Positions 4,166 to 57,522 are shown, numbered from the stretch's first letter. The stretch: DNA of 64,000 bases from a virus (IMGVR_UViG_2974516482_000001:31225-95224), one strand, 5' to 3'. The notes: generated by a model from the letters alone, not told the origin. Translations and numbers: made by a program.

Positions 4166-4813
4166 ATGAACCAACCATACGTTTACAAAATAGAATCAAA
4201 AGATGGACACATCTATTATGGATGTCGTCACGCAAAGAACTGTCACCCCAAAGAACTTTGGGTAAAATATTTCACGTCCTCGAAAGTCGTCCAATCCCTT
4301 GTATCACAACATGGACCAGATTACTTCACCCATGAAGTGATAATGCTATGTCGGGACGGAGAGGAAGCCCTCCAAGTTGAAGCGCAATTGATCGAATCCG
4401 TCCACACCAATCCTCTTTGTTTAAATCGTTTCCATGTTAAGAAAGATGGTTCCCTCGTTTATTTTGGGAGGACTGGGCCACTCAGCGAGGAAGCAAAGGT
4501 GCATTTGTCTAATGTAAACAGAGGGAAGAATAAACCAATTGGATTTTCGGAAACATCACGGCAAGCCCAAATCAAATATCAAGCAAGCGTGAGGATATGG
4601 AATCGACCTAGAGCCAAACCATTACAACACGTTTGGGCTATGGCTGACCAATTCTATCAATTATGGAAGAATGAAGGTTGGGGGCATGAACGTTTTTGTA
4701 ATCGGATGAACAATGGCAAAAACGTTCGCACATGCCACAACATGTACAAAATGTTCAAATACGAAAATTGGGTTCCTATGGAAGACCCTGAATGGGTAAA
4801 TGATTTCATGTAG
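4166..4813 (+). CDS. GIY-YIG homing endonuclease (Seg-like)
   Basis: N-terminal PYVYKIESKDGHIYYG...R GIY-YIG motif. Own promoter-like TTATAAT upstream. Paralog of the ORF at 35970. Confidence 0.75.
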   Translation: MNQPYVYKIESKDGHIYYGCRHAKNCHPKELWVKYFTSSKVVQSLVSQHGPDYFTHEVIMLCRDGEEALQVEAQLIESVHTNPLCLNRFHVKKDGSLVYFGRTGPLSEEAKVHLSNVNRGKNKPIGFSETSRQAQIKYQASVRIWNRPRAKPLQHVWAMADQFYQLWKNEGWGHERFCNRMNNGKNVRTCHNMYKMFKYENWVPMEDPEWVNDFM

Positions 4814-12489: not shown

Positions 12490-13158
12490 ATGCAAGAGAT
12501 CACTCTCTCCGAACGCACTTTACAACTGCTGGCTAACTTTGAAACCATCTGCCCCTCTATCGTTCTGGCACCTGGTAAAAAGCTGCGCACCGTTAACGAT
12601 TCCAGTACGGTTATCGCTATCGCTGATATCGACGAAGACTTCCCGTTCGAATTCCCAATTCTAGATCTCACCAAACTGCTGGCAATCCAGCGTCTTCCGA
12701 GTTTCAAAGGCGGTAAAATTGAAATGTCAGAAGACCACATTTTGCTGAAAGGTGAAAACTCCCAACTGCAATTCTGGCGTTCCGCTAAAGAATTGACGGT
12801 CGTTCCAGCAGACAGCATCGATCTCCCGTCTGTAGAATTCGAAGCAACGGTCACTCCTGAAAAAATGAAAGAGCTGACCCGCGCCTGTTCTACTCTGGGC
12901 CACAAAACTGTACGTCTGGTTGCCAGCGGCGGTAAAACTCGTCTGGTGGGCACGACCACTACTATCGATAATTCCAACGATTACACTGTTGAGTTGGGTG
13001 AAACAACTCTGGGTGATTTTGCTATGCCTGTTGATGTGGTCAACCTGAAAATGATCGAAGGCAACTACGTGATCCGCGCCTGTGCCGAAATGCAACTGGT
13101 TAACTTCCAATCCGCAGATGGCACCATCAACTATTACGTCGGCATGCAGCTGGATTAA
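12490..13158 (+). CDS. sliding clamp (T4 gp45 family)
   Basis: 222 aa. Size and start region resemble T4 gp45. Followed by gp44-gp62-regA in T4 order. Confidence 0.85.
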   Translation: MQEITLSERTLQLLANFETICPSIVLAPGKKLRTVNDSSTVIAIADIDEDFPFEFPILDLTKLLAIQRLPSFKGGKIEMSEDHILLKGENSQLQFWRSAKELTVVPADSIDLPSVEFEATVTPEKMKELTRACSTLGHKTVRLVASGGKTRLVGTTTTIDNSNDYTVELGETTLGDFAMPVDVVNLKMIEGNYVIRACAEMQLVNFQSADGTINYYVGMQLD

Positions 13159-13188
13159 TCAATAACGATTCGGCGCTTTATTATCGGT

Positions 13189-13210
13189 GGCGGGGGTTTC
13201 CCCGCCCTTT
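13189..13210 (+). terminator. hairpin terminator between gp45 and gp44
   Basis: ggcgggg-gttt-ccccgcc followed by cttt. Confidence 0.45.
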
Positions 13211-13236
13211 GAAACGTTTTATCTAAAGAGGCTGCA

Positions 13237-14226
13237 ATGTCTAACATCACTATCGTCACAGATCAATACGCGTGGGAAAACAAATATCGCCCTGACAATC
13301 TGGATGAGATCGTCCTCCCTTCAGACGTCCGTGCAAAAATCCATGGCTATGTTACATCAGGCAATGGAAACATCCCCTCAATGCTGTTCTATTCCCCTCA
13401 GCCTGGTACGGGCAAGACTACTTCTGCTCTGGCTGTGTGTAACGAAATCGGTTGCATCAAACCGTTGATGATCAATGCGTCACTGGATAACAGCATTGAT
13501 GTCATCCGTGACCGTGTTATTCAATACGCAACTGGCGTCAGTGTTTTCGGTGGCCGCAAAGTCGTTATCCTCGATGAAGTTGAGCGACTTTCCATGGCGG
13601 CGCAGGAATCCCTGAAAGGCATCGTAGAGAAAGTCTCCAAAAACTGCTCCTTCATCCTGACGACTAATGCGAAACAGCGCGTTAACGAACCTCTGCGTTC
13701 CCGCTGTCGTGAAATTGATTTTATCTGGTCCGAAAAGGAAGCAGATGAAGTTAAACTCCAATTCATGCGTCGTTGCGCAACTATCCTGACAGAGGAAGGT
13801 ATTCCGTATGAAGCTGGTGTAATTGCTTCCATTGTGAAAGCATATTTCCCAGATAATCGCAAAATTATGGGAACTCTTCAGGATAATGCCACCACGTTTG
13901 GTAAAATCGATGAACGCGCTCTGGCACAGGTTAAAGCAGGGGAATTCCAAGCGTTGGTTGATTTCCTGAAAACCAATGATTGGGCTGGGATGAAGCAGTG
14001 GGTGACCGACAACCAAAACTACATCACTGAAGATTTTTATTCCCGTTTCTTCCATTTCTGCGTTCCCCAGAACAAGGAAAAGACTCCTTTGATTCAAAAA
14101 GAGTCAATCCCTGATCTGGTATGTGTCTGTGGTCAGTCTCAGATTGAACATCGTTCCGTCGGCGACGTCTGGTTACACGGCGTTTACTTCTTGACTAACG
14201 TCATGCTCAACATCAAATGGAAGTAA
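13237..14226 (+). CDS. clamp loader large subunit (T4 gp44, AAA+)
   Basis: KYRPDNLDEIVLP, Walker A SPQPGTGKTT, Walker B VVILDEVERLS and sensor SRC motif, all colinear with T4 gp44. Confidence 0.9.
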   Translation: MSNITIVTDQYAWENKYRPDNLDEIVLPSDVRAKIHGYVTSGNGNIPSMLFYSPQPGTGKTTSALAVCNEIGCIKPLMINASLDNSIDVIRDRVIQYATGVSVFGGRKVVILDEVERLSMAAQESLKGIVEKVSKNCSFILTTNAKQRVNEPLRSRCREIDFIWSEKEADEVKLQFMRRCATILTEEGIPYEAGVIASIVKAYFPDNRKIMGTLQDNATTFGKIDERALAQVKAGEFQALVDFLKTNDWAGMKQWVTDNQNYITEDFYSRFFHFCVPQNKEKTPLIQKESIPDLVCVCGQSQIEHRSVGDVWLHGVYFLTNVMLNIKWK

Positions 14227-16105: not shown

Positions 16106-17311
16106 ATGAAAGATAAACCGTGTGACATTCCTTATTGCGGTGTTCGGGAAGCTAAAATTAAATCTGCCAAACCCGTCCTGGACCAGCAGATTGTAAAGTG
16201 GTCTTACGAATGGATGCACGATCGTTACCAGATCCACGTGAGAAAGGACGTCCAGCGTCTTCCTGCTCCCTGGACCAATAATCCTATACTACGGCAAGTC
16301 AAGTTTTGTAACGTCCGGAGAGAGCACGACAGGCAGTCTCTTAACCTGATCAATAACATTGTCAAGAACGATGCTCTGGGCATGGCAGACAAGATGTTCA
16401 ACTGTGTGTTGTTCCGCATGTACAATCTCTGGGCACCGATTGAGGCTATCGGCGGTGCTCGCACTATCAAAGAGTTCGCAAACATCGATCTTGATGTAAC
16501 CCGCAATCAACTTCAGGAATTTGAGGCCAATGGTGGTAAAGTGTTCACCAATGCCTTCAACACGGGCGGCCTGAAGCAATGCCTAGCTTTCCCTGAGCTG
16601 GTTGTCAACCACAAGGAGCAGCGCTTCGGTGGGATGATGGTTAAGGTACACCGTGTTGGCGGTGTTATAGATGAAATGGATTACAAGGTTGCCAAGAAGC
16701 TGGCTGAAGATAATCCTGGTGAATACAAAATAGAAGGCTGGGAACCATACATGCCGATGCGAGTCATCCGCTCTTTGAAGGCATTCGTCAACAAACACCC
16801 TCATTATTTTGATCGCCTCAGGGAATTTAGCCGTCCCGACTCTGTTTACCAGGCGATGTATGACGATATTGAGGGGCTTGGACCATTCTTGGCATACCAG
16901 ATTTGGGTTGATTTTACATACATCGATGAATATCCATTCAGTGAAAACCACTTCACTATCGCTGGTCCAGGTTGCCGTGCTGGTATCGATCTGTTATTTT
17001 TGGACAAGGACGGCATGACGCATGAAGAATGCATATTCTGGGTTCGTGATCATCAAGATCAATTGTTCGCTCAGTATGGGTATAAACGTAATGAATTTTG
17101 GTCGGCAGAAGAACCGGAAGACCGTTGCATGAATGTTATGCAGCTGGAGAACATGTTCTGTGAACTTCAGAAATATACCCGCTGCGTTGAGGCGGTGATG
17201 CGCGGGGAGAAACCTCGAGGAAAGGTGGGGTATAATGGTGGTGAAGTTAATCAGCCATTACAGAAGACTCCCGTTCGTTCTATTAATCTGTTAGAGAAGA
17301 TGAAAAAATGA
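16106..17311 (+). CDS. hypothetical protein (401 aa), unknown function
   Basis: GAGAGGA SD. Sits where T4 carries the DNA polymerase. No motif recognised. Confidence 0.5.
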   Translation: MKDKPCDIPYCGVREAKIKSAKPVLDQQIVKWSYEWMHDRYQIHVRKDVQRLPAPWTNNPILRQVKFCNVRREHDRQSLNLINNIVKNDALGMADKMFNCVLFRMYNLWAPIEAIGGARTIKEFANIDLDVTRNQLQEFEANGGKVFTNAFNTGGLKQCLAFPELVVNHKEQRFGGMMVKVHRVGGVIDEMDYKVAKKLAEDNPGEYKIEGWEPYMPMRVIRSLKAFVNKHPHYFDRLREFSRPDSVYQAMYDDIEGLGPFLAYQIWVDFTYIDEYPFSENHFTIAGPGCRAGIDLLFLDKDGMTHEECIFWVRDHQDQLFAQYGYKRNEFWSAEEPEDRCMNVMQLENMFCELQKYTRCVEAVMRGEKPRGKVGYNGGEVNQPLQKTPVRSINLLEKMKK

Positions 17312-35969: not shown

Positions 35970-36692
35970 ATGAGTATTCCATTCGTTTACTGTTTGAAAA
36001 GTAAGGATGGACATTTGTATTTTGGCTCCAAGATTGGAGAAGATTCTGATCCAAAGCAGCTTATGGAAACATATTTCACTTCATCAAAATATGTCAAAGA
36101 CTTGATGAAAACAAAAGGAAACGATTATTTTCAGGTAGTGGGTATAGAAATATTTCCAGGTAAACCGGAAGAAGCGTTTTGGAAAGAACAACAATTGATA
36201 GAGTCCTCTTACGACAACCCCATGTTACTAAACAAACATTATCAAACTGTTGGGACTAAACCATGGACTCAATTAGGCAGAAAGGGGAACAAACAGTATT
36301 TGTTTGGAAAGGGGCACCTCCGCGCTGGTAAAAATAATCCAATGTTTGGTAAACAAGGAGCCATGAAAGGTATTACAGGGAAAGACCATCCGGCCTATGG
36401 CGTAGATCGGTCGGGTGACAAAAATGGTATGTTTGGGAAATGCGGGGAATTACATCACCACTATGGAACTCCTCCATGGGAAGTTCCAATAAGCAAGAAA
36501 TTGGGGACTTCAAAACATTGGTTGGTTGCAGAAGAAATACGATTGGAGTGGGTTGCTGGCGCAAGGCAATGCGACTTGTCAAGGAAATATGGAATTAGCA
36601 TAAAGACCATTGAAACTATGGTCGGCAAATTCCGTTCCGGTTGGATACCTTCACAAGACCCTCAGTGGGTTAATTTTAAAGGTGGTGTATAA
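35970..36692 (+). CDS. GIY-YIG homing endonuclease (Seg-like), paralog of 4166-4813
   Basis: PFVYCLKSKDGHLYFG GIY-YIG motif. C-terminal W(V/I)P..DP.WVN tail shared with the 4166 ORF. Confidence 0.75.
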   Translation: MSIPFVYCLKSKDGHLYFGSKIGEDSDPKQLMETYFTSSKYVKDLMKTKGNDYFQVVGIEIFPGKPEEAFWKEQQLIESSYDNPMLLNKHYQTVGTKPWTQLGRKGNKQYLFGKGHLRAGKNNPMFGKQGAMKGITGKDHPAYGVDRSGDKNGMFGKCGELHHHYGTPPWEVPISKKLGTSKHWLVAEEIRLEWVAGARQCDLSRKYGISIKTIETMVGKFRSGWIPSQDPQWVNFKGGV

Positions 36693-47191: not shown

Positions 47192-47809
47192 ATGGGCAAA
47201 ATCTTTATACCTTCTCACTCAGAAGGTTGTCAAATCGCTGCAAAATTTCTACACAAACAAATGAATTGTGGTGCTGTGTTCGTAGAACCAAATTCATTCG
47301 ATAATCGTGAATCCCCTGACGCCATCGGGTTCAGACCTGGAGGTTGTTCTATATTAATGGAAGTTAAAGTCTCCCGCGCCGACTTCCTGACAGACAAAAA
47401 GAAACCTCATCGCATGAATCCTTCCATAGGCATGGGAGCATATCGTTTCTATGTTTGCCCAGCAGATGTTATTAAAATTGAAGACCTCCCTCCCAAGTGG
47501 GGTTTGTTGTACTTCACCCCTAGAAAATCTTTGAAGCCCGTTCACGTTCCAAATATGCAATATTCCTCTTTGTCTTCACCGGAACATTATGCATCATATT
47601 TGTCTAAATCTTTGGACAAAAGAAGACCTACAGATATCCCTCCTTATCTATTAGGGTACAAACAGATGCTGGAAGAATTCGCCCACTTTGAACGCAATCA
47701 GGTTGCGGAACAAAATATTCTGTATGGGGCTTGGCGACAGCTTTGCATAGCTCAAAGTCGCGGGGTGGATTATAATGTAACAGAAGTGTTCCAGAGGCCA
47801 AACATATGA
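47192..47809 (+). CDS. hypothetical protein with PD-(D/E)xK nuclease-like motif
   Basis: SPDAIGF...ILMEVKVS pattern (PD...EVK). Tentative. Confidence 0.35.
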   Translation: MGKIFIPSHSEGCQIAAKFLHKQMNCGAVFVEPNSFDNRESPDAIGFRPGGCSILMEVKVSRADFLTDKKKPHRMNPSIGMGAYRFYVCPADVIKIEDLPPKWGLLYFTPRKSLKPVHVPNMQYSSLSSPEHYASYLSKSLDKRRPTDIPPYLLGYKQMLEEFAHFERNQVAEQNILYGAWRQLCIAQSRGVDYNVTEVFQRPNI

Positions 47810-47970
47810 ACTATAAAAGGATACATGACTCTATAATTTACAGAGCAGTTAATCGGTCACTGCCTTCGGGATACACAGAGAAACATCATATCATTCCTCT
47901 TTCCATGGGTGGTAAAGAAGACGAAGATTGGATTGTCTTTGTCAAGGAGAACAAACGTGAAATTTCTTGA
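47806..47970 (+). pseudogene. truncated HNH homing-endonuclease remnant (54 aa) overlapping the primase start
   Basis: GYTEKHHIIPLSMGGKEDEDWIV matches the HNH core (YTE+HHIIP+GG), but the ORF ends after 54 codons, inside the primase 5' end. Confidence 0.4.
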
Positions 47971-51396: not shown

Positions 51397-52236
51397 ATGC
51401 AATCTGCGTCTAAAGTTGTATCCATGAAGCCAGCGAAGACAAAATCTGCTCGTAAGAAAGACACCATCCAGAAAGAAGAAGACTGGATGAAGTTTTCCAA
51501 AGGCGATTTCAAAATTGCTCCGTTCAATGGCCTCTCAGAAAATCAGAACCTCGCATATCAATCCGCATTAAACGAACACCTCACTATCGCAATCGGTCCG
51601 GCAGGTACAGGCAAATCCTATTGCGGTGCATCTGCTGCAGCAAAACATCTGATAGACAAAACAATCAACAAGATCATCATCACACGTTCTCCCCTTCCAA
51701 CTGGTACCACAGCAGGGTTCCGGCCTGGTGACACATATGAAAAGCTGATGCCTTATTTGATGCCGCTCATACAGACATTTAAAAAGGTTCTCAAAACAGA
51801 TACGGGTTCCGACGGTTTCTTCAACTATCTGTGGGAGAAACGCATCATAGAAATTCAAGACCTTGAAACTGTAAAGGGGATGACTTTCGATGATTGTTTC
51901 CTGATTATTGAAGAAGCACAGGAATGTGATATGGAGCAGCTGAAAAACTTGTTGACTCGTGCTTCAGATTCTTCGTACATCTTCGTGAATGGAGATATCA
52001 AACAGTCTAACAAGCGACTGCGTGACAGTGCGTTACAGACGTATGTGGATTCCTTTAAAGACTTCAACAATAAGCTGGAAACAGGTTCCTTGCAAATTGA
52101 CGGTGTAGAAATCGGAGATGAATATCCAGAGTGGGTTCAACCATTCAGCATCATCGAATTCGATAAGTCTGATCGTAATGGTCGCGGCAACTTCACCCGC
52201 CTGATGTTAGAAATTAACGACCTGTACAACATTTAA
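51397..52236 (+). CDS. phoH: PhoH-like ATPase
   Basis: Walker A IAIGPAGTGKSY. PhoH-family length and layout. Confidence 0.8.
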   Translation: MQSASKVVSMKPAKTKSARKKDTIQKEEDWMKFSKGDFKIAPFNGLSENQNLAYQSALNEHLTIAIGPAGTGKSYCGASAAAKHLIDKTINKIIITRSPLPTGTTAGFRPGDTYEKLMPYLMPLIQTFKKVLKTDTGSDGFFNYLWEKRIIEIQDLETVKGMTFDDCFLIIEEAQECDMEQLKNLLTRASDSSYIFVNGDIKQSNKRLRDSALQTYVDSFKDFNNKLETGSLQIDGVEIGDEYPEWVQPFSIIEFDKSDRNGRGNFTRLMLEINDLYNI

Positions 52237-52320
52237 ATACCACACGAACTTCCCCGCCGCCTTCAATCCATGGAGGCGGTGTATAATAACAGCCTGCATA
52301 AACACAAACCGAGGATCGCT

Positions 52321-55300
52321 ATGATTAAAATCATAAAGCGGGACGGATCTTCTGTCCCCTTTGACATTGAAAAACTCCATACCGTTATTGAACGAGCATG
52401 TGACGGCCTTGAAGGAGTATCGGTGTCTGAGGTGGAAGCTGCATCGAAGATTCAATTCACCGATAACATGAAAACCGAACGCATTCAGGATATCATTATC
52501 CAAGCTGCGGCCACCTTAATTTCTGTTGATAAACCCAATTATCAATATGTTGCTGCCCGCCTGAAGTCGTATGACCTGCGAAAGGTTGTCTATGGTCAGT
52601 ACAAGCCACCTCATTTGCTGGATATTTTTGCAAAGAACACCAAGCTGGGTGTTTATGACCGCGAATTCCTCGAACTTTACTCTAAAGAAGAATTCGAAGA
52701 ACTTAACACAGTCATCAACCACAAACGCGACAAGAATTTCACTTGGGCAGCAATGGGCCAGCTGACTCAAAAATATCTTTTGCGTGATCGTTCTTCTGAC
52801 AGCAAAGTGTATTATGAAACCCCTCAAGTCATGTACATGGCAATCGCTATGGCATTATTCTCAGCGTGGGATAAAGAAAGCAGACTGACAATGGTGAAGA
52901 AGTTCTATGAATACGCCAGTACAGGCAAATTCAGTCTTCCAACACCTATTATGTCCGGCGTCCGCACCCCGACCCGACAGTTCAGCTCTTGTGTATTGAT
53001 CAAAACTGGTGACACATTGGACTCAATTAATACCACTGCGAAAAGCATCGTGGATTATGTTTCCAAACGTGCTGGCATCGGATTCGATGTTGGGGCAATT
53101 CGTGGCATCGGCAGCCCTATCCGTAAAGGGGAAATGGTCCATACAGGTCTGGTTCCATTCATCAAGTATTTGACTGGTGCCCTGAAGTCTTGCTCTCAAG
53201 GCGGTATCCGTGGTGGATCGGCAACATGCTATGTTCCCATCTGGCATTATCAATTTGATGATGTCGTTGTTCTCAAAAACAACCGTGGATTGGAAGAGAA
53301 CCGTGAACGCCGTATCGACTATGGGATTCAGATTAACCGCGTCATGTTCGAGCGCCTGGTGAACAAACAGCCTCTATACCTGTTTGATCCAAAAGACAAC
53401 CGCGAAATGTATGAAGCATTTTTCGCAGACGTCAATAAATTCCGCGAAATGTACGACAATATGATCAAGGCCGCCGACGCCGGATTATGTCGTTCCAAAA
53501 AGCTGCAAGCTGAAGAAGTGTTCCAAATGCTACTAGACCAGCGTTCTGACACTGGCCGGATCTACATCGCATTCGTTGATCACATGAACGAGTATAGTCC
53601 GTTCAACCTCGACACCATCTACAGCTCCAACCTATGCTTTACAGGTGAAACCATGGTGGCTGTCGCGGATGGTCGTAACATGGTAAGCATCAAAGAACTG
53701 GCCGATTGGTCTGGGTATGACAAGAAGTTCCCTGTGTATTCCGCTCGTCCTTCCAAAAGGAATGACGGTACGTGGGTGTCTGAAATCAAGATGGCCAAGG
53801 CAACCAAAACTGGGATTCGTGAAGTTGTGGAAGTACTGTTGAGCAATGGGCAGTCATTCCGTTGCACCCCAGATCACCCGCTGGCACTTTCGGACGCTCG
53901 TGGTAATTATCCATACGTCCAAGCACAGCATGCTATTGGTCAGAAACTGAAAGGTTTCTACACCACGATGTCAGAGAACAAATATCGACGCATCAACAGC
54001 GTCAGCAACGGATTGTCGAACCAACACAGAATGATCTATGAGTTTTACAATGGTCCTCTGGATTCTGGTAATCATATTGATCATATCGTTGATGACGCTG
54101 TTGTCTTGGATGAAATTAGCAATCTCCGTTCCATCCCAGCGGAAGACAACTTCGCCAAGAAATCGGCGTCTATGTCAGGCGTAGGCAATCCAAGCAACCC
54201 TGCTGTGAAAGCAAACAAAGTCCGTGCTGCGCACAACTGCTCTGCGCGTACTTCTATGGAAAGAAACCCTAAGTTCAAGGGTATGAGCAACCAAGACATC
54301 CTCGATCTTGCTTGGGAAATGAAGGACAACGGAGAAATGGTTACTTTACCGAGAATGGTTAAGAAATCACCGTTCATGCCAAATTCTTTCAGCAAAAACC
54401 GATTTGGTGGTAAGTTCTCCAACCTCACGAACATGCTGGATGCTGGAGTCAGAACTATTGAACCATTTGAACACAAAGAGAAATTGGTTGTTTCAAACGT
54501 TTCTCGCGAATCTCCTATGGAAGACCCAACTGTTGTTTCTATCACCCCTGCTGGAGTGGAGGATGTGTATGATCTGACAGTTGATGACAACCACAATTTC
54601 TTTATCGTGACCAATGGAGACCCTCTGAGTAGCGAAGGCATTTTGGTACATAACTGTCTAGAAATCGCGCTCCCGACTCGTGAGTTCCAACAGTATGATG
54701 ATGAAGATGGTCGCATTGCCCTATGTACACTCGCATCATTTAACCTGACGGCATTTGAAGATCCAACAGAAATGGAAGATGTTGCTTTCGTTCTGGTTTC
54801 AGCTTTGGATATGTTGTTGGAATATCAGGACTATCCAGCTCGCCAAGCCCGTTTGGCCGTAGAAGAATATCGTCCTCTGGGTATCGGTATCGTCAACGTC
54901 GCACATTTCCTGGCCAAGAATTTCACGGGTTATGGATCGCCTATCGGATTAGAACTTCTAGACAAGTGGATGGCGCATCTTCATTTCTACTTGGTCAAAG
55001 CGTCCAACCGTCTGGCCATGCGTTTCGGATCTTGTAAGAAGTCAACTATCCATGATTCTGGATTTGTGACAGCCGACCTTCAGCCTCTCCCGCTGGACAT
55101 CCTACCCAATGGCAAAAAGCCTGTTGGGCAAGCCTATGGTCTTGACTGGGAAGGTCTGAAGCAGAACCTATCCGAGTATGGGATCCGTAACGCCACGTTG
55201 TTAGCCGTAGCACCAACTGAAAGCTCCTCTCAGGTGCTGAACGCAACGAACGGTATAGAGCCACCAAAAGGTCTCATCAGCATCAAAGGCAGCAAGGACG

Positions 55301-55620
55301 GCGTCTATAAACAGATCGTTCCGGATGTAGAAACCCTTGGTCCTCTATATGACCTGAAATGGAATCTGGATTGTATTGAATACCTGAAGACGGCGGCGGT
55401 CATACAACGTTGGGTAGATCAATCCATCAGCACCAACACATGGTATGACCCAGAGAAATATCCAGAAGGCAAGATCCCGCGCTCTCTTATGATGCAGGAT
55501 ATTCTGTCTTTCTACATGTGGGGTGGTAAAACTCTGTATTACAACACCAACAAAGACTCCAAGGAAGACGAGGAGTTGAAACAAATTGAAGAACCTGGTT
55601 GTGAGAGTTGTGTTGTTTGA
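52321..55620 (+). CDS. nrdA: ribonucleotide reductase class I alpha subunit NrdA, interrupted by an in-frame intein (53635-54654)
   Basis: ATP cone at the N-terminus. Active-site SSNL|C...HN|CLEIALPT is split by a 340-aa insertion. Extein about 759 aa. Confidence 0.85.
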   Translation: MIKIIKRDGSSVPFDIEKLHTVIERACDGLEGVSVSEVEAASKIQFTDNMKTERIQDIIIQAAATLISVDKPNYQYVAARLKSYDLRKVVYGQYKPPHLLDIFAKNTKLGVYDREFLELYSKEEFEELNTVINHKRDKNFTWAAMGQLTQKYLLRDRSSDSKVYYETPQVMYMAIAMALFSAWDKESRLTMVKKFYEYASTGKFSLPTPIMSGVRTPTRQFSSCVLIKTGDTLDSINTTAKSIVDYVSKRAGIGFDVGAIRGIGSPIRKGEMVHTGLVPFIKYLTGALKSCSQGGIRGGSATCYVPIWHYQFDDVVVLKNNRGLEENRERRIDYGIQINRVMFERLVNKQPLYLFDPKDNREMYEAFFADVNKFREMYDNMIKAADAGLCRSKKLQAEEVFQMLLDQRSDTGRIYIAFVDHMNEYSPFNLDTIYSSNLCFTGETMVAVADGRNMVSIKELADWSGYDKKFPVYSARPSKRNDGTWVSEIKMAKATKTGIREVVEVLLSNGQSFRCTPDHPLALSDARGNYPYVQAQHAIGQKLKGFYTTMSENKYRRINSVSNGLSNQHRMIYEFYNGPLDSGNHIDHIVDDAVVLDEISNLRSIPAEDNFAKKSASMSGVGNPSNPAVKANKVRAAHNCSARTSMERNPKFKGMSNQDILDLAWEMKDNGEMVTLPRMVKKSPFMPNSFSKNRFGGKFSNLTNMLDAGVRTIEPFEHKEKLVVSNVSRESPMEDPTVVSITPAGVEDVYDLTVDDNHNFFIVTNGDPLSSEGILVHNCLEIALPTREFQQYDDEDGRIALCTLASFNLTAFEDPTEMEDVAFVLVSALDMLLEYQDYPARQARLAVEEYRPLGIGIVNVAHFLAKNFTGYGSPIGLELLDKWMAHLHFYLVKASNRLAMRFGSCKKSTIHDSGFVTADLQPLPLDILPNGKKPVGQAYGLDWEGLKQNLSEYGIRNATLLAVAPTESSSQVLNATNGIEPPKGLISIKGSKDGVYKQIVPDVETLGPLYDLKWNLDCIEYLKTAAVIQRWVDQSISTNTWYDPEKYPEGKIPRSLMMQDILSFYMWGGKTLYYNTNKDSKEDEELKQIEEPGCESCVV
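53635..54654 (+). mobile_element. intein with HNH homing-endonuclease domain inserted at the catalytic Cys of NrdA
   Basis: Begins CFTGETMV (block A). TPDHP (block B). Internal HNH-like NHIDHIVDD...N. Ends DDNHNFFIV...ILVHN (blocks F/G) followed by +1 Cys. Confidence 0.75.
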
Positions 55621-55652
55621 TTAGGTCTATACCACACAATCGTTTAATATCA

Positions 55653-55680
55653 GGGGTGATTCGTCACCCCTTATTCATCA
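55653..55680 (+). terminator. hairpin between nrdA and nrdB (terminator/attenuator)
   Basis: aggggtga-ttcg-tcacccct followed by tattcatc, 10 nt before the nrdB SD. Confidence 0.4.
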
Positions 55681-55690
55681 GGAAAGAAAC

Positions 55691-56794
55691 ATGAACGAAC
55701 AAAAGCAATTTTCAGTATTTGACCCATCTTCAGATAATACAGGTTTGCCGTTCTTTGGCGACCCTGTAAGTATCCAGCGTTATGACAAAGTGGCTTGGCC
55801 TTTTGTTCAAAAATGGTATGAAAAAGGCCTCAGCCAATTCTGGCGTCCGGAAGAAGTGGATGTCACCAAAGACAAAGCGGACTTTGCCACTCTATCCGCT
55901 GCGGAACAACACATCTACTTCAGCAACCTGAAACGCCAAACCATGCTGGACTCTATTCAAGGCGCTGCTCCATTCGAAGCGTTTGGCCCATGGGCATCAA
56001 CACCAGAAGCGCAATTTGCTATTCTGGAGTGGACGCGCCAAGAAGCCATCCACTCACTATCTTATACGCATATCCTTCGTAACACAGTGAATGATCCTGG
56101 TATCGTTTTTGACCATGTTCTGGACGTTCAGGAGATCGTCGATTGCGCCGGACAGATCAGCGTATACTACGACGACATGGTGCGTTACAGCGGGATGCGT
56201 ATGGCTGGACGCGCGTTCACCCGTGAAGACATCATGAACGCCAAGCGTGCATTCTGGCGTGCTCTGTTTGCTGCTAACTCCCTCGAAGGCGTCCGTTTCT
56301 ATGTTTCATTTGCGTGTTCTTGGGCATTCATGCAATTCCTTAACAAAATGGAAGGCAACGCTAAAATCATCCGTCAGATTGCTCGTGATGAGCAAGATCA
56401 CCTCATCCTGACCCAGACTTTCCTGAACCGTCTGCCGCTGTTGGACCCTGATTTTGCCATTATTAGAGAAGAACTGCGCGGCGAAATGACCCAGGTGTAT
56501 GTCGACGTCGTCAACCAAGAAAAAGAATGGGCGAATTATCTGTTCAAAGACGGCTCAATGCTGGGACTGAATGCAAATATCCTTCATCAAATGGTGGACT
56601 GGTTGGCAACACATCGTATGGGAGCCATTGGCCACCCATATCCAGGACAAGCCCGTAAAGACAATCCGGTGCCATGGATAAATGAGTGGCTAGATAATAA
56701 AACAATGCAATATGCATTACAGGAAGCGGAAGCCCCTGATTATCTGACTGGTGTCCTTACTGGATCAGTCTCCGACGGTCTGAAATTTGCCTAA
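55691..56794 (+). CDS. nrdB: ribonucleotide reductase beta subunit NrdB
   Basis: Ferritin-like diiron ligand segments (EAIHSLSY, NSLEGVRFY, EQDHL). 367 aa. Confidence 0.85.
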   Translation: MNEQKQFSVFDPSSDNTGLPFFGDPVSIQRYDKVAWPFVQKWYEKGLSQFWRPEEVDVTKDKADFATLSAAEQHIYFSNLKRQTMLDSIQGAAPFEAFGPWASTPEAQFAILEWTRQEAIHSLSYTHILRNTVNDPGIVFDHVLDVQEIVDCAGQISVYYDDMVRYSGMRMAGRAFTREDIMNAKRAFWRALFAANSLEGVRFYVSFACSWAFMQFLNKMEGNAKIIRQIARDEQDHLILTQTFLNRLPLLDPDFAIIREELRGEMTQVYVDVVNQEKEWANYLFKDGSMLGLNANILHQMVDWLATHRMGAIGHPYPGQARKDNPVPWINEWLDNKTMQYALQEAEAPDYLTGVLTGSVSDGLKFA

Positions 56795-56803
56795 AGGTGA
56801 GAA

Positions 56804-57028
56804 ATGATTACGATTTATTCCAAACAAGGTTGTGCGCAATGTTTACAAGCTGAAAACATCTGTCGCATTCGCGGTATTGAACACCAAATTCTGAAGCTAG
56901 ACAAAGACTACAAGCTGGAAGAATTACAGAAAATCACTGGTAAGCAACGCATGTCTATGCCCGTGATTGTTCTGGCTGACCAAACCGTGACCGACGTTAC
57001 TGGACTCGCCGCAAGTTTGAAACGCTGA
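56804..57028 (+). CDS. glutaredoxin-like protein (NrdH/Grx family)
   Basis: N-terminal IYSKQGCAQC CxxC motif. 74 aa. Directly after nrdB. Confidence 0.65.
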   Translation: MITIYSKQGCAQCLQAENICRIRGIEHQILKLDKDYKLEELQKITGKQRMSMPVIVLADQTVTDVTGLAASLKR

Positions 57029-57054
57029 TCTTTCAAAGCCCCTAACCCAGGGGC

Positions 57055-57082
57055 TTTACTTTTCAAAAACCTGGTTTATAGT
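57055..57082 (+). promoter_or_regulatory. early promoter cassette TTTACT-16-TATAGT after terminator hairpin
   Basis: agcccct-aaccc-aggggct hairpin overlapping the -35. Confidence 0.4.
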
Positions 57083-57130
57083 ATTCTAGGTCACGGCAAC
57101 AACGCCACATTTGACCAGAAGGACTATATC

Positions 57131-57496
57131 ATGTATCTGAACACACCAGCCGTATTAGAAGCCACCATCTCTTTCCCTATCCAAGGCCTGGCGAAGTCCA
57201 GAGCGTTCCTTAAACAAGTCCCCTTTGCGTTTAACGTCCACGGGGAGAGATACCCGCGCTCTATCCTGCGTGCCCTGCGTGATGCCCTGCGTAACGGGGC
57301 GGCGCTGACCAAGGAAGAGTTGCGATCTAAAGAAGTGCACCTGATCGACCCGGAACTGTTATCTGAAGAACCAGAACTGTACCAAGATTTCCAAAACGAC
57401 GCCCGTAAAGCTCAGCTGATGTTCAAGAAGGGCGATGACGCTCTGTACGTGGTAGACAAGGGCACAAACCTGCCTCTGGTACTCTTCATCAAGTAA
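57131..57496 (+). CDS. hypothetical protein (121 aa)
   Basis: GAAGGActatatcATG context. Confidence 0.45.
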   Translation: MYLNTPAVLEATISFPIQGLAKSRAFLKQVPFAFNVHGERYPRSILRALRDALRNGAALTKEELRSKEVHLIDPELLSEEPELYQDFQNDARKAQLMFKKGDDALYVVDKGTNLPLVLFIK

Positions 57497-57522
57497 CCCG
57501 ACCAGCCCCTCATCGAGGGGCT

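Follow-up and report, generated by a model that had tools for sequence, protein, structure and literature searches.

A predicted homing intein with an HNH-type nuclease at the active-site cysteine of NrdA in Salmonella phage maane

Organization of the nrdA locus

The window analysed here is a stretch of 64,000 nucleotides of viral DNA whose nrdA region is 100% identical to that of Salmonella phage maane (MT074480; Kuttervirus, Ackermannviridae), and a position in the window equals the position in the MT074480 record minus 31224. The nrdA open reading frame, on the plus strand, contains at 53635-54654 an in-frame insert of 1020 nt, corresponding to 340 aa, and reads ...DTIYSSNL/CFTGETMV...GILVHN/CLEIALPT, where the slashes mark the two junctions. 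Coordinates, length and both junctions had been given in the original prediction, which was made from the sequence alone, and they are exact in the ORF translation. In GenBank and RefSeq the 1099-aa ORF is annotated only as an RNR alpha subunit, and the same unspliced length, also part of the prediction, is correct for the annotated start at 52321. This ATG has a GAGGA 8 nt on its 5' side, and the alignment with E. coli NrdA starts there as well; an in-frame ATG at 52270 would encode 1116 aa and is found without such a GAGGA.

When the insert is removed, the resulting protein of 759 aa aligns over its full length to the class Ia alpha subunit NrdA of E. coli (2r1r, E 4e-233). The N-extein matches the Pfam families ATP-cone, Ribonuc_red_lgN and Ribonuc_red_lgC, and NCBIfam PRK09103 (class Ia alpha) with 881 bits. 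In a residue-by-residue alignment the Cys at position +1 falls on Cys439 of E. coli R1, within N437-L438-C439-L440-E441, and in established RNR biochemistry this is the cysteine bearing the thiyl radical. The insertion directly before this residue, as originally proposed, is thus borne out. The downstream partner genes of nrdA together span 55691..57028 on the plus strand. The features of the locus are the following:

52270/52321-55620, plus strand: nrdA ORF; the annotated ATG at 52321 gives 1099 aa
52321..53634, plus strand: nrdA N-extein, 438 aa, with the ATP-cone, the all-alpha domain and the first part of the barrel, ending in ...S-S-N437-L438
53607..53634, plus strand: putative upstream co-conversion tract, eight synonymous substitutions with respect to the intein-free allele
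53635..54654, plus strand: predicted intein, 340 aa, 37.7 kDa, from C1 to H339-N340
53635..53937, plus strand: Hint N-terminal lobe, residues 1-101, with TIGR01445 over residues 1-83 and a modelled pLDDT of about 77-96
53635-53637, plus strand: block A, Cys1
53866-53868 and 53875-53877, plus strand: block B, T78 and H81
53938..54159, plus strand: linker and predicted HNH (H-N-N) nuclease core
54079-54084, 54121-54123 and 54148-54150, plus strand: HNH residues D149-H150, N163 and N172
54160..54528, plus strand: putative DNA-binding part of the endonuclease, with GxxNP, NPxFxG, a helical bundle and a conserved SFSKNRFGG
54529..54654, plus strand: Hint C-terminal lobe, residues 299-340, with TIGR01443, aligning with the C-terminal lobes of DnaB and DnaE mini-inteins; block F is V311-Y-D313-L-T-V-D-D-N-H320-N-F and block G is I-L-V-H339-N340
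54655..55620, plus strand: nrdA C-extein, 321 aa and stop; C+1 (54655-54657) corresponds to E. coli Cys439 and is followed by L-E441
55691-56794, plus strand: RNR small subunit, labelled "alpha subunit" in GenBank; the syntenic gene of LIMEstone1 is nrdB
56804-57028, plus strand: glutaredoxin; the syntenic gene of LIMEstone1 is annotated as glutaredoxin

Other features were also considered over the insert. Rfam gave no match in 51500-57500 at E <= 0.1, by which a group I intron or another RNA element is ruled out. Neither of the two antisense ORFs that lie over the intein on the minus strand (54081-54716 and 53619-53867) matches Pfam, and both were treated as spurious; promoter-like and terminator-like matches within the intein did not clearly exceed the shuffled expectation. 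The insert is no chance feature, because the same gene exists without it in about 250 phage records.

The original prediction counted the intein among four or more homing-type elements of the window. This count stands for the NrdA intein, while the other three candidates are all under Pfam cut-offs and weakly supported:

35970-36692: GIY-YIG ORF candidate, below the Pfam cut-off
4166-4813: SegE-like ORF candidate, 23.2 bits against a cut-off of 25
47806-47970: candidate HNH fragment of 54 aa, below the Pfam cut-off

Intein domains and predicted splicing

Three curated profiles recognize the insert above their cut-offs: Pfam Intein_splicing (PF14890) with 39.4 bits (cut-off 35.8), NCBIfam TIGR01445 intein_Nterm with 41.1 bits (cut-off 24.5) and NCBIfam TIGR01443 intein_Cterm with 25.0 bits (cut-off 15.6). 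All the residues of class-1 splicing are present, namely C1, T78-P-D-H81, D313, H320, H339-N340 and C+1. Blocks A, B, F and G, as read by the original prediction, are therefore in place (C1, T78/H81, D313/H320 and H339-N340), and on precise alignment the C-terminal Asn and the +1 Cys nucleophile are found as N340/C+1. Among the relatives in alignment A1, T78, H81 and D313 are invariant, H339 and N340 are nearly so, and C1 is conserved in at least 90%.

Structure prediction gave a consistent picture. In the AF2 model of the whole intein, built from 10 sequences, the terminal lobes reach a pLDDT of about 77-97 and the nuclease domain about 40-60. When this model was compared with the PDB using Foldseek, the best 40 matches consisted only of inteins and Hedgehog Hint domains; mini-inteins aligned over both Hint lobes with a TM of about 0.70-0.75. 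The modelled insert is a Hint fold made from both lobes around an inserted domain. A phmmer search of the whole intein against the PDB placed designed ankyrin repeats on top, which is a spurious result coming from the stretch EVVEVLLSNG; after these, the same search listed only weak matches to DnaB and DnaE inteins, which were not used as evidence.

According to the proposed mechanism, nrdA would be translated as a precursor of 1099 aa (predicted 123.9 kDa) in which the N-x-C-x-E loop is interrupted by 340 residues. Splicing would begin with an N-S acyl shift at Cys1, continue with trans-thioesterification to the +1 Cys and with cyclisation of Asn340, His339 assisting, and would be completed by an S-N shift. 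The predicted products are an 86.2-kDa NrdA and a free intein of 37.7 kDa, and the predicted spliced junction peptide is ...IYSSNLCLEIALPTR... The spliced NrdA would be identical to the NrdA of the intein-free sister phages, with the exception of A238T. Since the insert sits directly before Cys439, the catalytic cysteine of the RNR would double as the splicing nucleophile. From the residues described above we infer that splicing takes place, and, judging from the position of the insert, it is sound to expect that RNR activity would require it.

The nuclease domain

The middle domain of the intein (residues 102-298, 53938-54528) holds N146-H147-I-D149-H150. The internal motif NHIDHIVDD pointed out in the original prediction is therefore real, and the maane copy alone reaches 20.4-22 bits with Pfam HNH_3, under the cut-off of 24.8, so that the HNH assignment rests on profiles at the family level and on the fold. 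At the family level HNH_3 matches all seven of the full-length members (best E 6.8e-9), and PHROG 99 (HNH) matches at 2.4e-5. A profile of the HNH core that includes free-standing relatives (A3) has I-HmuI (1u3e) as its best PDB match, at E 8.1e-5, and the two are in register at D-H, at N-L-R and at the distal Asn; with a profile covering the whole endonuclease domain (A2), the PDB gave no meaningful match. AF2 applied to the nuclease domain alone, using 30 sequences, gave a pLDDT of 93-96 for the core and of 86-98 for the downstream helical bundle, and the domain has the beta-beta-alpha-metal fold.

The H-N-H/N motif consists of D149-H150, N163 and N172, of which H150 and N163 do not vary among 30 relatives. 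At the third position maane and the other Ackermannviridae copies have Asn (Asn172), and at least 90% of the relatives have His. This Asn is compatible with activity, because I-HmuI also has Asn there. By these comparisons the middle domain is a predicted I-HmuI-like HNH (H-N-N) nuclease joined to a helical DNA-binding module.

Either the free intein or the precursor would carry the nuclease, and during co-infection it would nick or cut an intein-free nrdA near the SSNL/CLE codons; repair off the intein-containing genome would then copy the intein together with a few tens of flanking bases. We infer that the nuclease is active, with a cut site probably near these codons.

The nuclease domain was also searched with HMMER against 1.84 billion representative proteins, giving 46 clusters (50% identity) at E <= 1e-3. 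In about 35 of these clusters the proteins are long RNRs and the matching part lies inside an intein at the same site, so that the nuclease module looks dedicated to that target. The junctions take the form SNL/C...HN/C[T/S/L/M]E when the enzyme is of class I and NP/C...HN/C[G/A/S]E when it is class II-like. The amino acid identity to the maane intein is 92-96% for the Dickeya phages LIMEstone1 and Coodle, 47% for Vibrio phage YC, 38% for Synechococcus phage S-CBWM1, whose record already has a "similar to intein" feature, and 30% for the uncultured 735-kb jumbo phage LR756501. Shorter members exist as well: Vibrio phages SUMAE and VPALA have a 233-aa copy without the DNA-binding segment, and in several metagenomic RNRs there are mini-inteins of this family of 146-168 aa.

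Empty sites and evidence of mobility

A megablast search retrieved 257 related records and the insert is present in 22 of them, RefSeq duplicates counted: maane, pertopsoe and all the Dickeya Limestoneviruses. The records without the insert align as two pieces that are exactly the exteins. The comparison with intein-free relatives that the original prediction had proposed gave a positive result, as an intein-free nrdA with an identical protein junction was found in about 250 related Ackermannviridae records. Occupied sites are distributed sporadically: among about 190 records of Salmonella and Escherichia phages only maane and pertopsoe have the intein, versus 18 of the 18 Limestonevirus records.

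Among the intein-free phages, allotria permits a detailed comparison. Between its nrdA and the maane exteins 11 of 2280 nt are different, and nine of these differences, all synonymous, lie between -28 and +3 of the junction (-28, -27, -25, -19, -16, -13, -7 and -4 upstream, +3 downstream, at 54657). The probability of such clustering, corrected for window position, is about 2e-12. The two NrdA proteins differ at one residue out of 759, A238T, which lies 603 nt on the 5' side of the insertion point. The cluster from -28 to +3 looks like a co-conversion tract. The maane-type flank occurs in no intein-free record, the best match being 93.3% over 120 nt, and pertopsoe has the tract in common with maane only from -19 onward. 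This difference in length is as expected for co-conversion tracts, which are variable, or for later recombination.

The similarity of the inteins is discordant with that of the genes around them. The maane intein is 95.0% identical in nucleotides to the Coodle intein, against 75-77% for the exteins, and 89.7% identical to the LIME1 intein, the exteins of Coodle and LIME1 being 75-79% identical to those of maane. Among the maane, Coodle and LIME1 alleles the dN/dS of the nuclease and DNA-binding segments is 0.07-0.16, as low as that of the splicing lobes, and the full-length intein ORF is intact in 22 of 22 records. A donor with the exact maane flank was also looked for and none new was found: IMG/VR gave LIMEstone1 itself and one distant locus, and a pattern scan of metagenomes gave one LIMEstone-type contig only.

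The sporadic distribution, the empty sites, the co-conversion of the flank and the discordant similarity of intein and exteins all point to a mobile element. Considered together with the dN/dS, the empty sites, the footprint and the discordance speak for a nuclease whose activity either continues or ended only very recently, and not for a decaying relic.

Alternative explanations

On the whole it is very probable that the insert at 53635-54654 is a canonical class-1 intein that carries a homing endonuclease, has been homing now or recently and is predicted to be competent for splicing. It could be argued that the intein splices with an inactive HNH endonuclease and has been kept since a precise deletion is hard to obtain at an essential active site, its spread being due to nothing more than ordinary homologous recombination when phages co-infect; we regard this reading as improbable. 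The HNH_3 score is indeed sub-threshold, the third HNH position has changed from His to Asn in the Ackermannviridae clade, and degenerate copies do exist, such as the 233-aa inteins of SUMAE and VPALA and the 146-168-aa mini-inteins of the metagenomic proteins P0004-P0008. However, Asn at the third position is the state of I-HmuI itself, and the selection just described acts on the nuclease and DNA-binding segments as strongly as on the splicing lobes, with no record having lost the full-length ORF. Moreover, the exchange tracts stop 3-28 nt from the junction, which is typical of repair initiated by a break and unlikely from random crossovers, the exteins being only about 76% identical.

It is scarcely credible, instead, that the insert is retained in the mature protein as a domain insertion, or that nrdA is a pseudogene and the phage uses the RNR of its host, even if the hosts of Kuttervirus possess their own NrdAB. 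The splicing residues are all intact and under purifying selection, and the exteins are no less conserved than the NrdA of intein-free phages (1/759 aa different). A retained insert would part N437/L438 from C439/E441 and so destroy the active site, and the intein is fixed in all the sampled Limestoneviruses, where the nrdA-nrdB-grx operon is intact.

Possible exchange of intein alleles in Limestoneviruses

Coodle and LIME1, two phages of one species, have 108 differences over the 1020 positions of the intein (10.6%), yet their nrdA exteins differ only at -7, -4 and +6, and these are the only differences in more than 2.7 kb of flank. That near-identical Limestoneviruses have intein alleles 10.6% apart is a modestly novel observation. 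It may tentatively be proposed, as a possibility against which the balance still leans, that the endonuclease also cuts nrdA alleles occupied by a diverged intein, so that intein alleles would compete and drag flank markers with them. Such cutting would account for exteins without any difference outside -7..+6 around such diverged inteins, and all the Limestonevirus records are occupied, which means that no empty Limestonevirus site is known. The metagenomic NrdA P0034, with two tandem inteins at this site, would also agree with it, as would the finding that, among solved structures, I-HmuI is the nearest relative of the nuclease. I-HmuI reportedly cuts both intron-containing and intron-less DNA, and competition between I-HmuI and I-HmuII is said to have been described by Goodrich-Blair and Shub in 1996. 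That work is cited in both Limestonevirus genome papers (LIMEstone1: PMC3296691). However, the same pattern could be left by two very recent and independent invasions of an empty ancestral allele, a loss of the intein followed by re-invasion also fits, and the Coodle-type allele has been sampled once (n=1).

A more general proposal, that intein alleles displace each other as precise cassettes, also across Limestonevirus and Kuttervirus, seems to us rather unlikely. If it were true, the Coodle/LIME1 pair would be the footprint of an intein replacement and the tandem double intein of P0034 a failed or intermediate outcome of replacement, and the place where Limestonevirus (on Dickeya) and Kuttervirus (on Salmonella) met would be wastewater.

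Relevance of the element

The mature NrdA of maane is predicted to have 759 aa, versus the 1099-aa ORF of the GenBank/RefSeq annotation, and maane would have one homing endonuclease beyond those listed; the genome paper of LIMEstone1 missed its copy too. The maane intein, though clear-cut, is an ordinary case of a selfish element of known kind that is still moving between phages, and the current understanding of inteins is unchanged by it. On the other hand, maane, pertopsoe, allotria, Coodle and LIME1 constitute a very clean natural experiment on intein homing in lytic phages, offering a known empty site, flank tracts of unequal length and two diverged alleles in otherwise identical genes; all five are cultivable and their hosts are tractable. 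HNH-type inteins are far less studied than LAGLIDADG ones. Since in class I and class II RNRs alike the family appears dedicated to the N-x-C-x-E codons, it could reveal how the target is recognized, that is, how a modular nuclease made of HNH and helix-turn-helix parts recognizes the conserved coding sequence of an active site.

Comparison with known systems

RNR genes of phages are recognised as a hotspot in which introns, inteins and free-standing endonucleases occur (PMC3653736). The site of the thiyl-radical Cys is the commonest intein insertion point in RNRs, and inteins are reported to have domains of the LAGLIDADG or the HNH type (Dassa et al. 2009, PMC2677866). Since site, nuclease class and kind of element have been documented before, all three are known. 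The maane nrdA intein itself appears to be previously unreported: our literature search found no paper linking an intein to nrdA in Ackermannviridae, LIMEstone, maane and pertopsoe included, and the sole reported Ackermannviridae intein that it turned up was that in the terminase of Klebsiella phage Magnus. In the tables of the LIMEstone1 genome paper there are 14 homing endonucleases and three introns but no intein, and the paper has no mention of nrdA (PMC3296691).

Within its own family, the maane intein shares the insertion site and the Hint-HNH-DNA-binding-Hint architecture with the inteins of LIMEstone1, Coodle, YC, S-CBWM1 and LR756501. These copies belong to other host genera, and the members outside Ackermannviridae have His at the third HNH position, where maane has Asn; LR756501 and several metagenomic members lie in a class II-like RNR with the junction TNP/CGE, whereas the maane enzyme is of class Ia.

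By insertion site the maane intein is like the InBase RIR1/NrdA alleles and GOS NrdA-1 to -7, all placed directly N-terminal to the thiyl-radical Cys. In the GOS NrdA inteins, as in maane, the +1 nucleophile is the catalytic Cys and the hosts are phages or phage-like; those inteins, however, are split and accompanied by free-standing genes for GIY-YIG or Vsr-like endonucleases, while that of maane is contiguous, with an HNH domain inside it (PMC2677866). The nuclease resembles I-HmuI (1U3E), the nicking HNH homing endonuclease of the group I intron of Bacillus phage SPO1's DNA polymerase gene, but I-HmuI is intron-encoded and a free-standing protein, while the maane nuclease is embedded in a Hint domain, and the identity between the two is about 13%. 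Finally, nrdA of Aeromonas phage Aeh1 has also been invaded by an HNH-type homing endonuclease, encoded by the free-standing gene mobE, and its host enzyme is functional (Friedrich et al., summarised in PMC3045599 and PMC2677866). In Aeh1 there is no intein and the gene is split into two polypeptides that reassemble, whereas in maane a single polypeptide is made, for which protein splicing is predicted.

Annotation of nrdA and other maane genes

In nrdA, a second in-frame ATG lies 51 nt upstream of the annotated one (window 52270-52320) and extends the ORF, called mechanically, to 1116 aa. Homology to NrdA begins only from the annotated start at 52321, and a search for a Shine-Dalgarno-like sequence at the upstream ATG (window 52270) found none. 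Two further genes of maane carry database descriptions that can be compared with our results:

16106-17311, + strand, hypothetical protein maane_46; strong match to PF18723 (5-hmdU DNA kinase helical domain), E 1.3e-82
55691-56794, + strand, small (beta) subunit of ribonucleotide reductase (RNR), nrdB, by synteny with LIMEstone1; labelled RNR 'alpha subunit' in GenBank

The 'alpha subunit' label is probably a mis-annotation, because synteny with LIMEstone1 places nrdB at this position. The match in maane_46, which is not annotated as a 5-hmdU DNA kinase in the GenBank record, is in keeping with the pathway for thymidine hypermodification in ViI-like phages.

Other homing endonuclease candidates

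Apart from the intein, three ORFs in the window are candidates for homing endonucleases or their remains:

35970-36692, + strand, GIY-YIG homing endonuclease ORF (maane_72), by annotation
4166-4813, + strand, hypothetical protein maane_27; SegE-type GIY-YIG match near threshold (23.2 bits against 25)
47806-47970, + strand, 54-aa ORF annotated as 'homing endonuclease'; weak HNH match (17.4 bits against 21.4)

The ORF of maane_72, which is found in allotria too, is flanked by the RNase H gene on one side and the late sigma factor gene on the other, and the Pfam search returned for it a weak NUMOD3 match alone (16.4 bits, under the cut-off). The ORF of maane_27 adjoins the gene for the major head protein, and its product may likewise be a homing endonuclease of the free-standing type. 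The 54-aa ORF, which overlaps the 5' end of the primase gene, looks like a remnant. Allotria has in addition a hypothetical ORF of 657 nt (L011 11734-12390) between the sliding-clamp and clamp-loader genes, absent from maane (window ~13158-13237), and this may be another mobile ORF of the presence/absence type.

Intein alleles and flanking sequences

The inteins of the Dickeya phages Coodle (L009 1501-2520) and LIMEstone1 (L003 4364-5383) differ at 108 of 1020 nt, whereas the nrdA exteins of these two members of one species differ only at -7, -4 and +6 from the insertion point. As read from these alignments, the pattern is either that of a precise swap of the intein cassette or that of two independent invasions. 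The pertopsoe intein is 99.8% identical in nucleotides to that of maane; the upstream synonymous tract starts at -19 in pertopsoe (L010 ~1472-1500) and at -28 in maane (window 53607-53634), and pertopsoe retains the allotria-type AATTTG at -28 to -25.

Variant architectures in the intein family

In the Vibrio phages SUMAE (L005 2501-3220) and VPALA the intein is a 233-aa copy that keeps both splicing lobes and has lost ~105 residues of the DNA-binding segment, and it looks like a degenerating stage in the homing cycle. The metagenomic class I NrdA P0034 (1226 aa) carries a tandem pair of inteins at the thiyl-radical Cys site, from residue 294 onward, in the order SNL, a 159-aa mini-intein ending in LLVHN, an HNH intein (CFAGETIV...ILTNN) and CTEVTLPA; with this arrangement, the +1 nucleophile of the first intein would have to be Cys1 of the second. 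In two other metagenomic RNRs, P0007 and P0019, inteins of the same family sit one residue further downstream (SSNLC|CFTGE... and YNPC|CFTGE...), an insertion point that agrees with the shifted 'NrdJ' point of Dassa et al. 2009 (PMC2677866).
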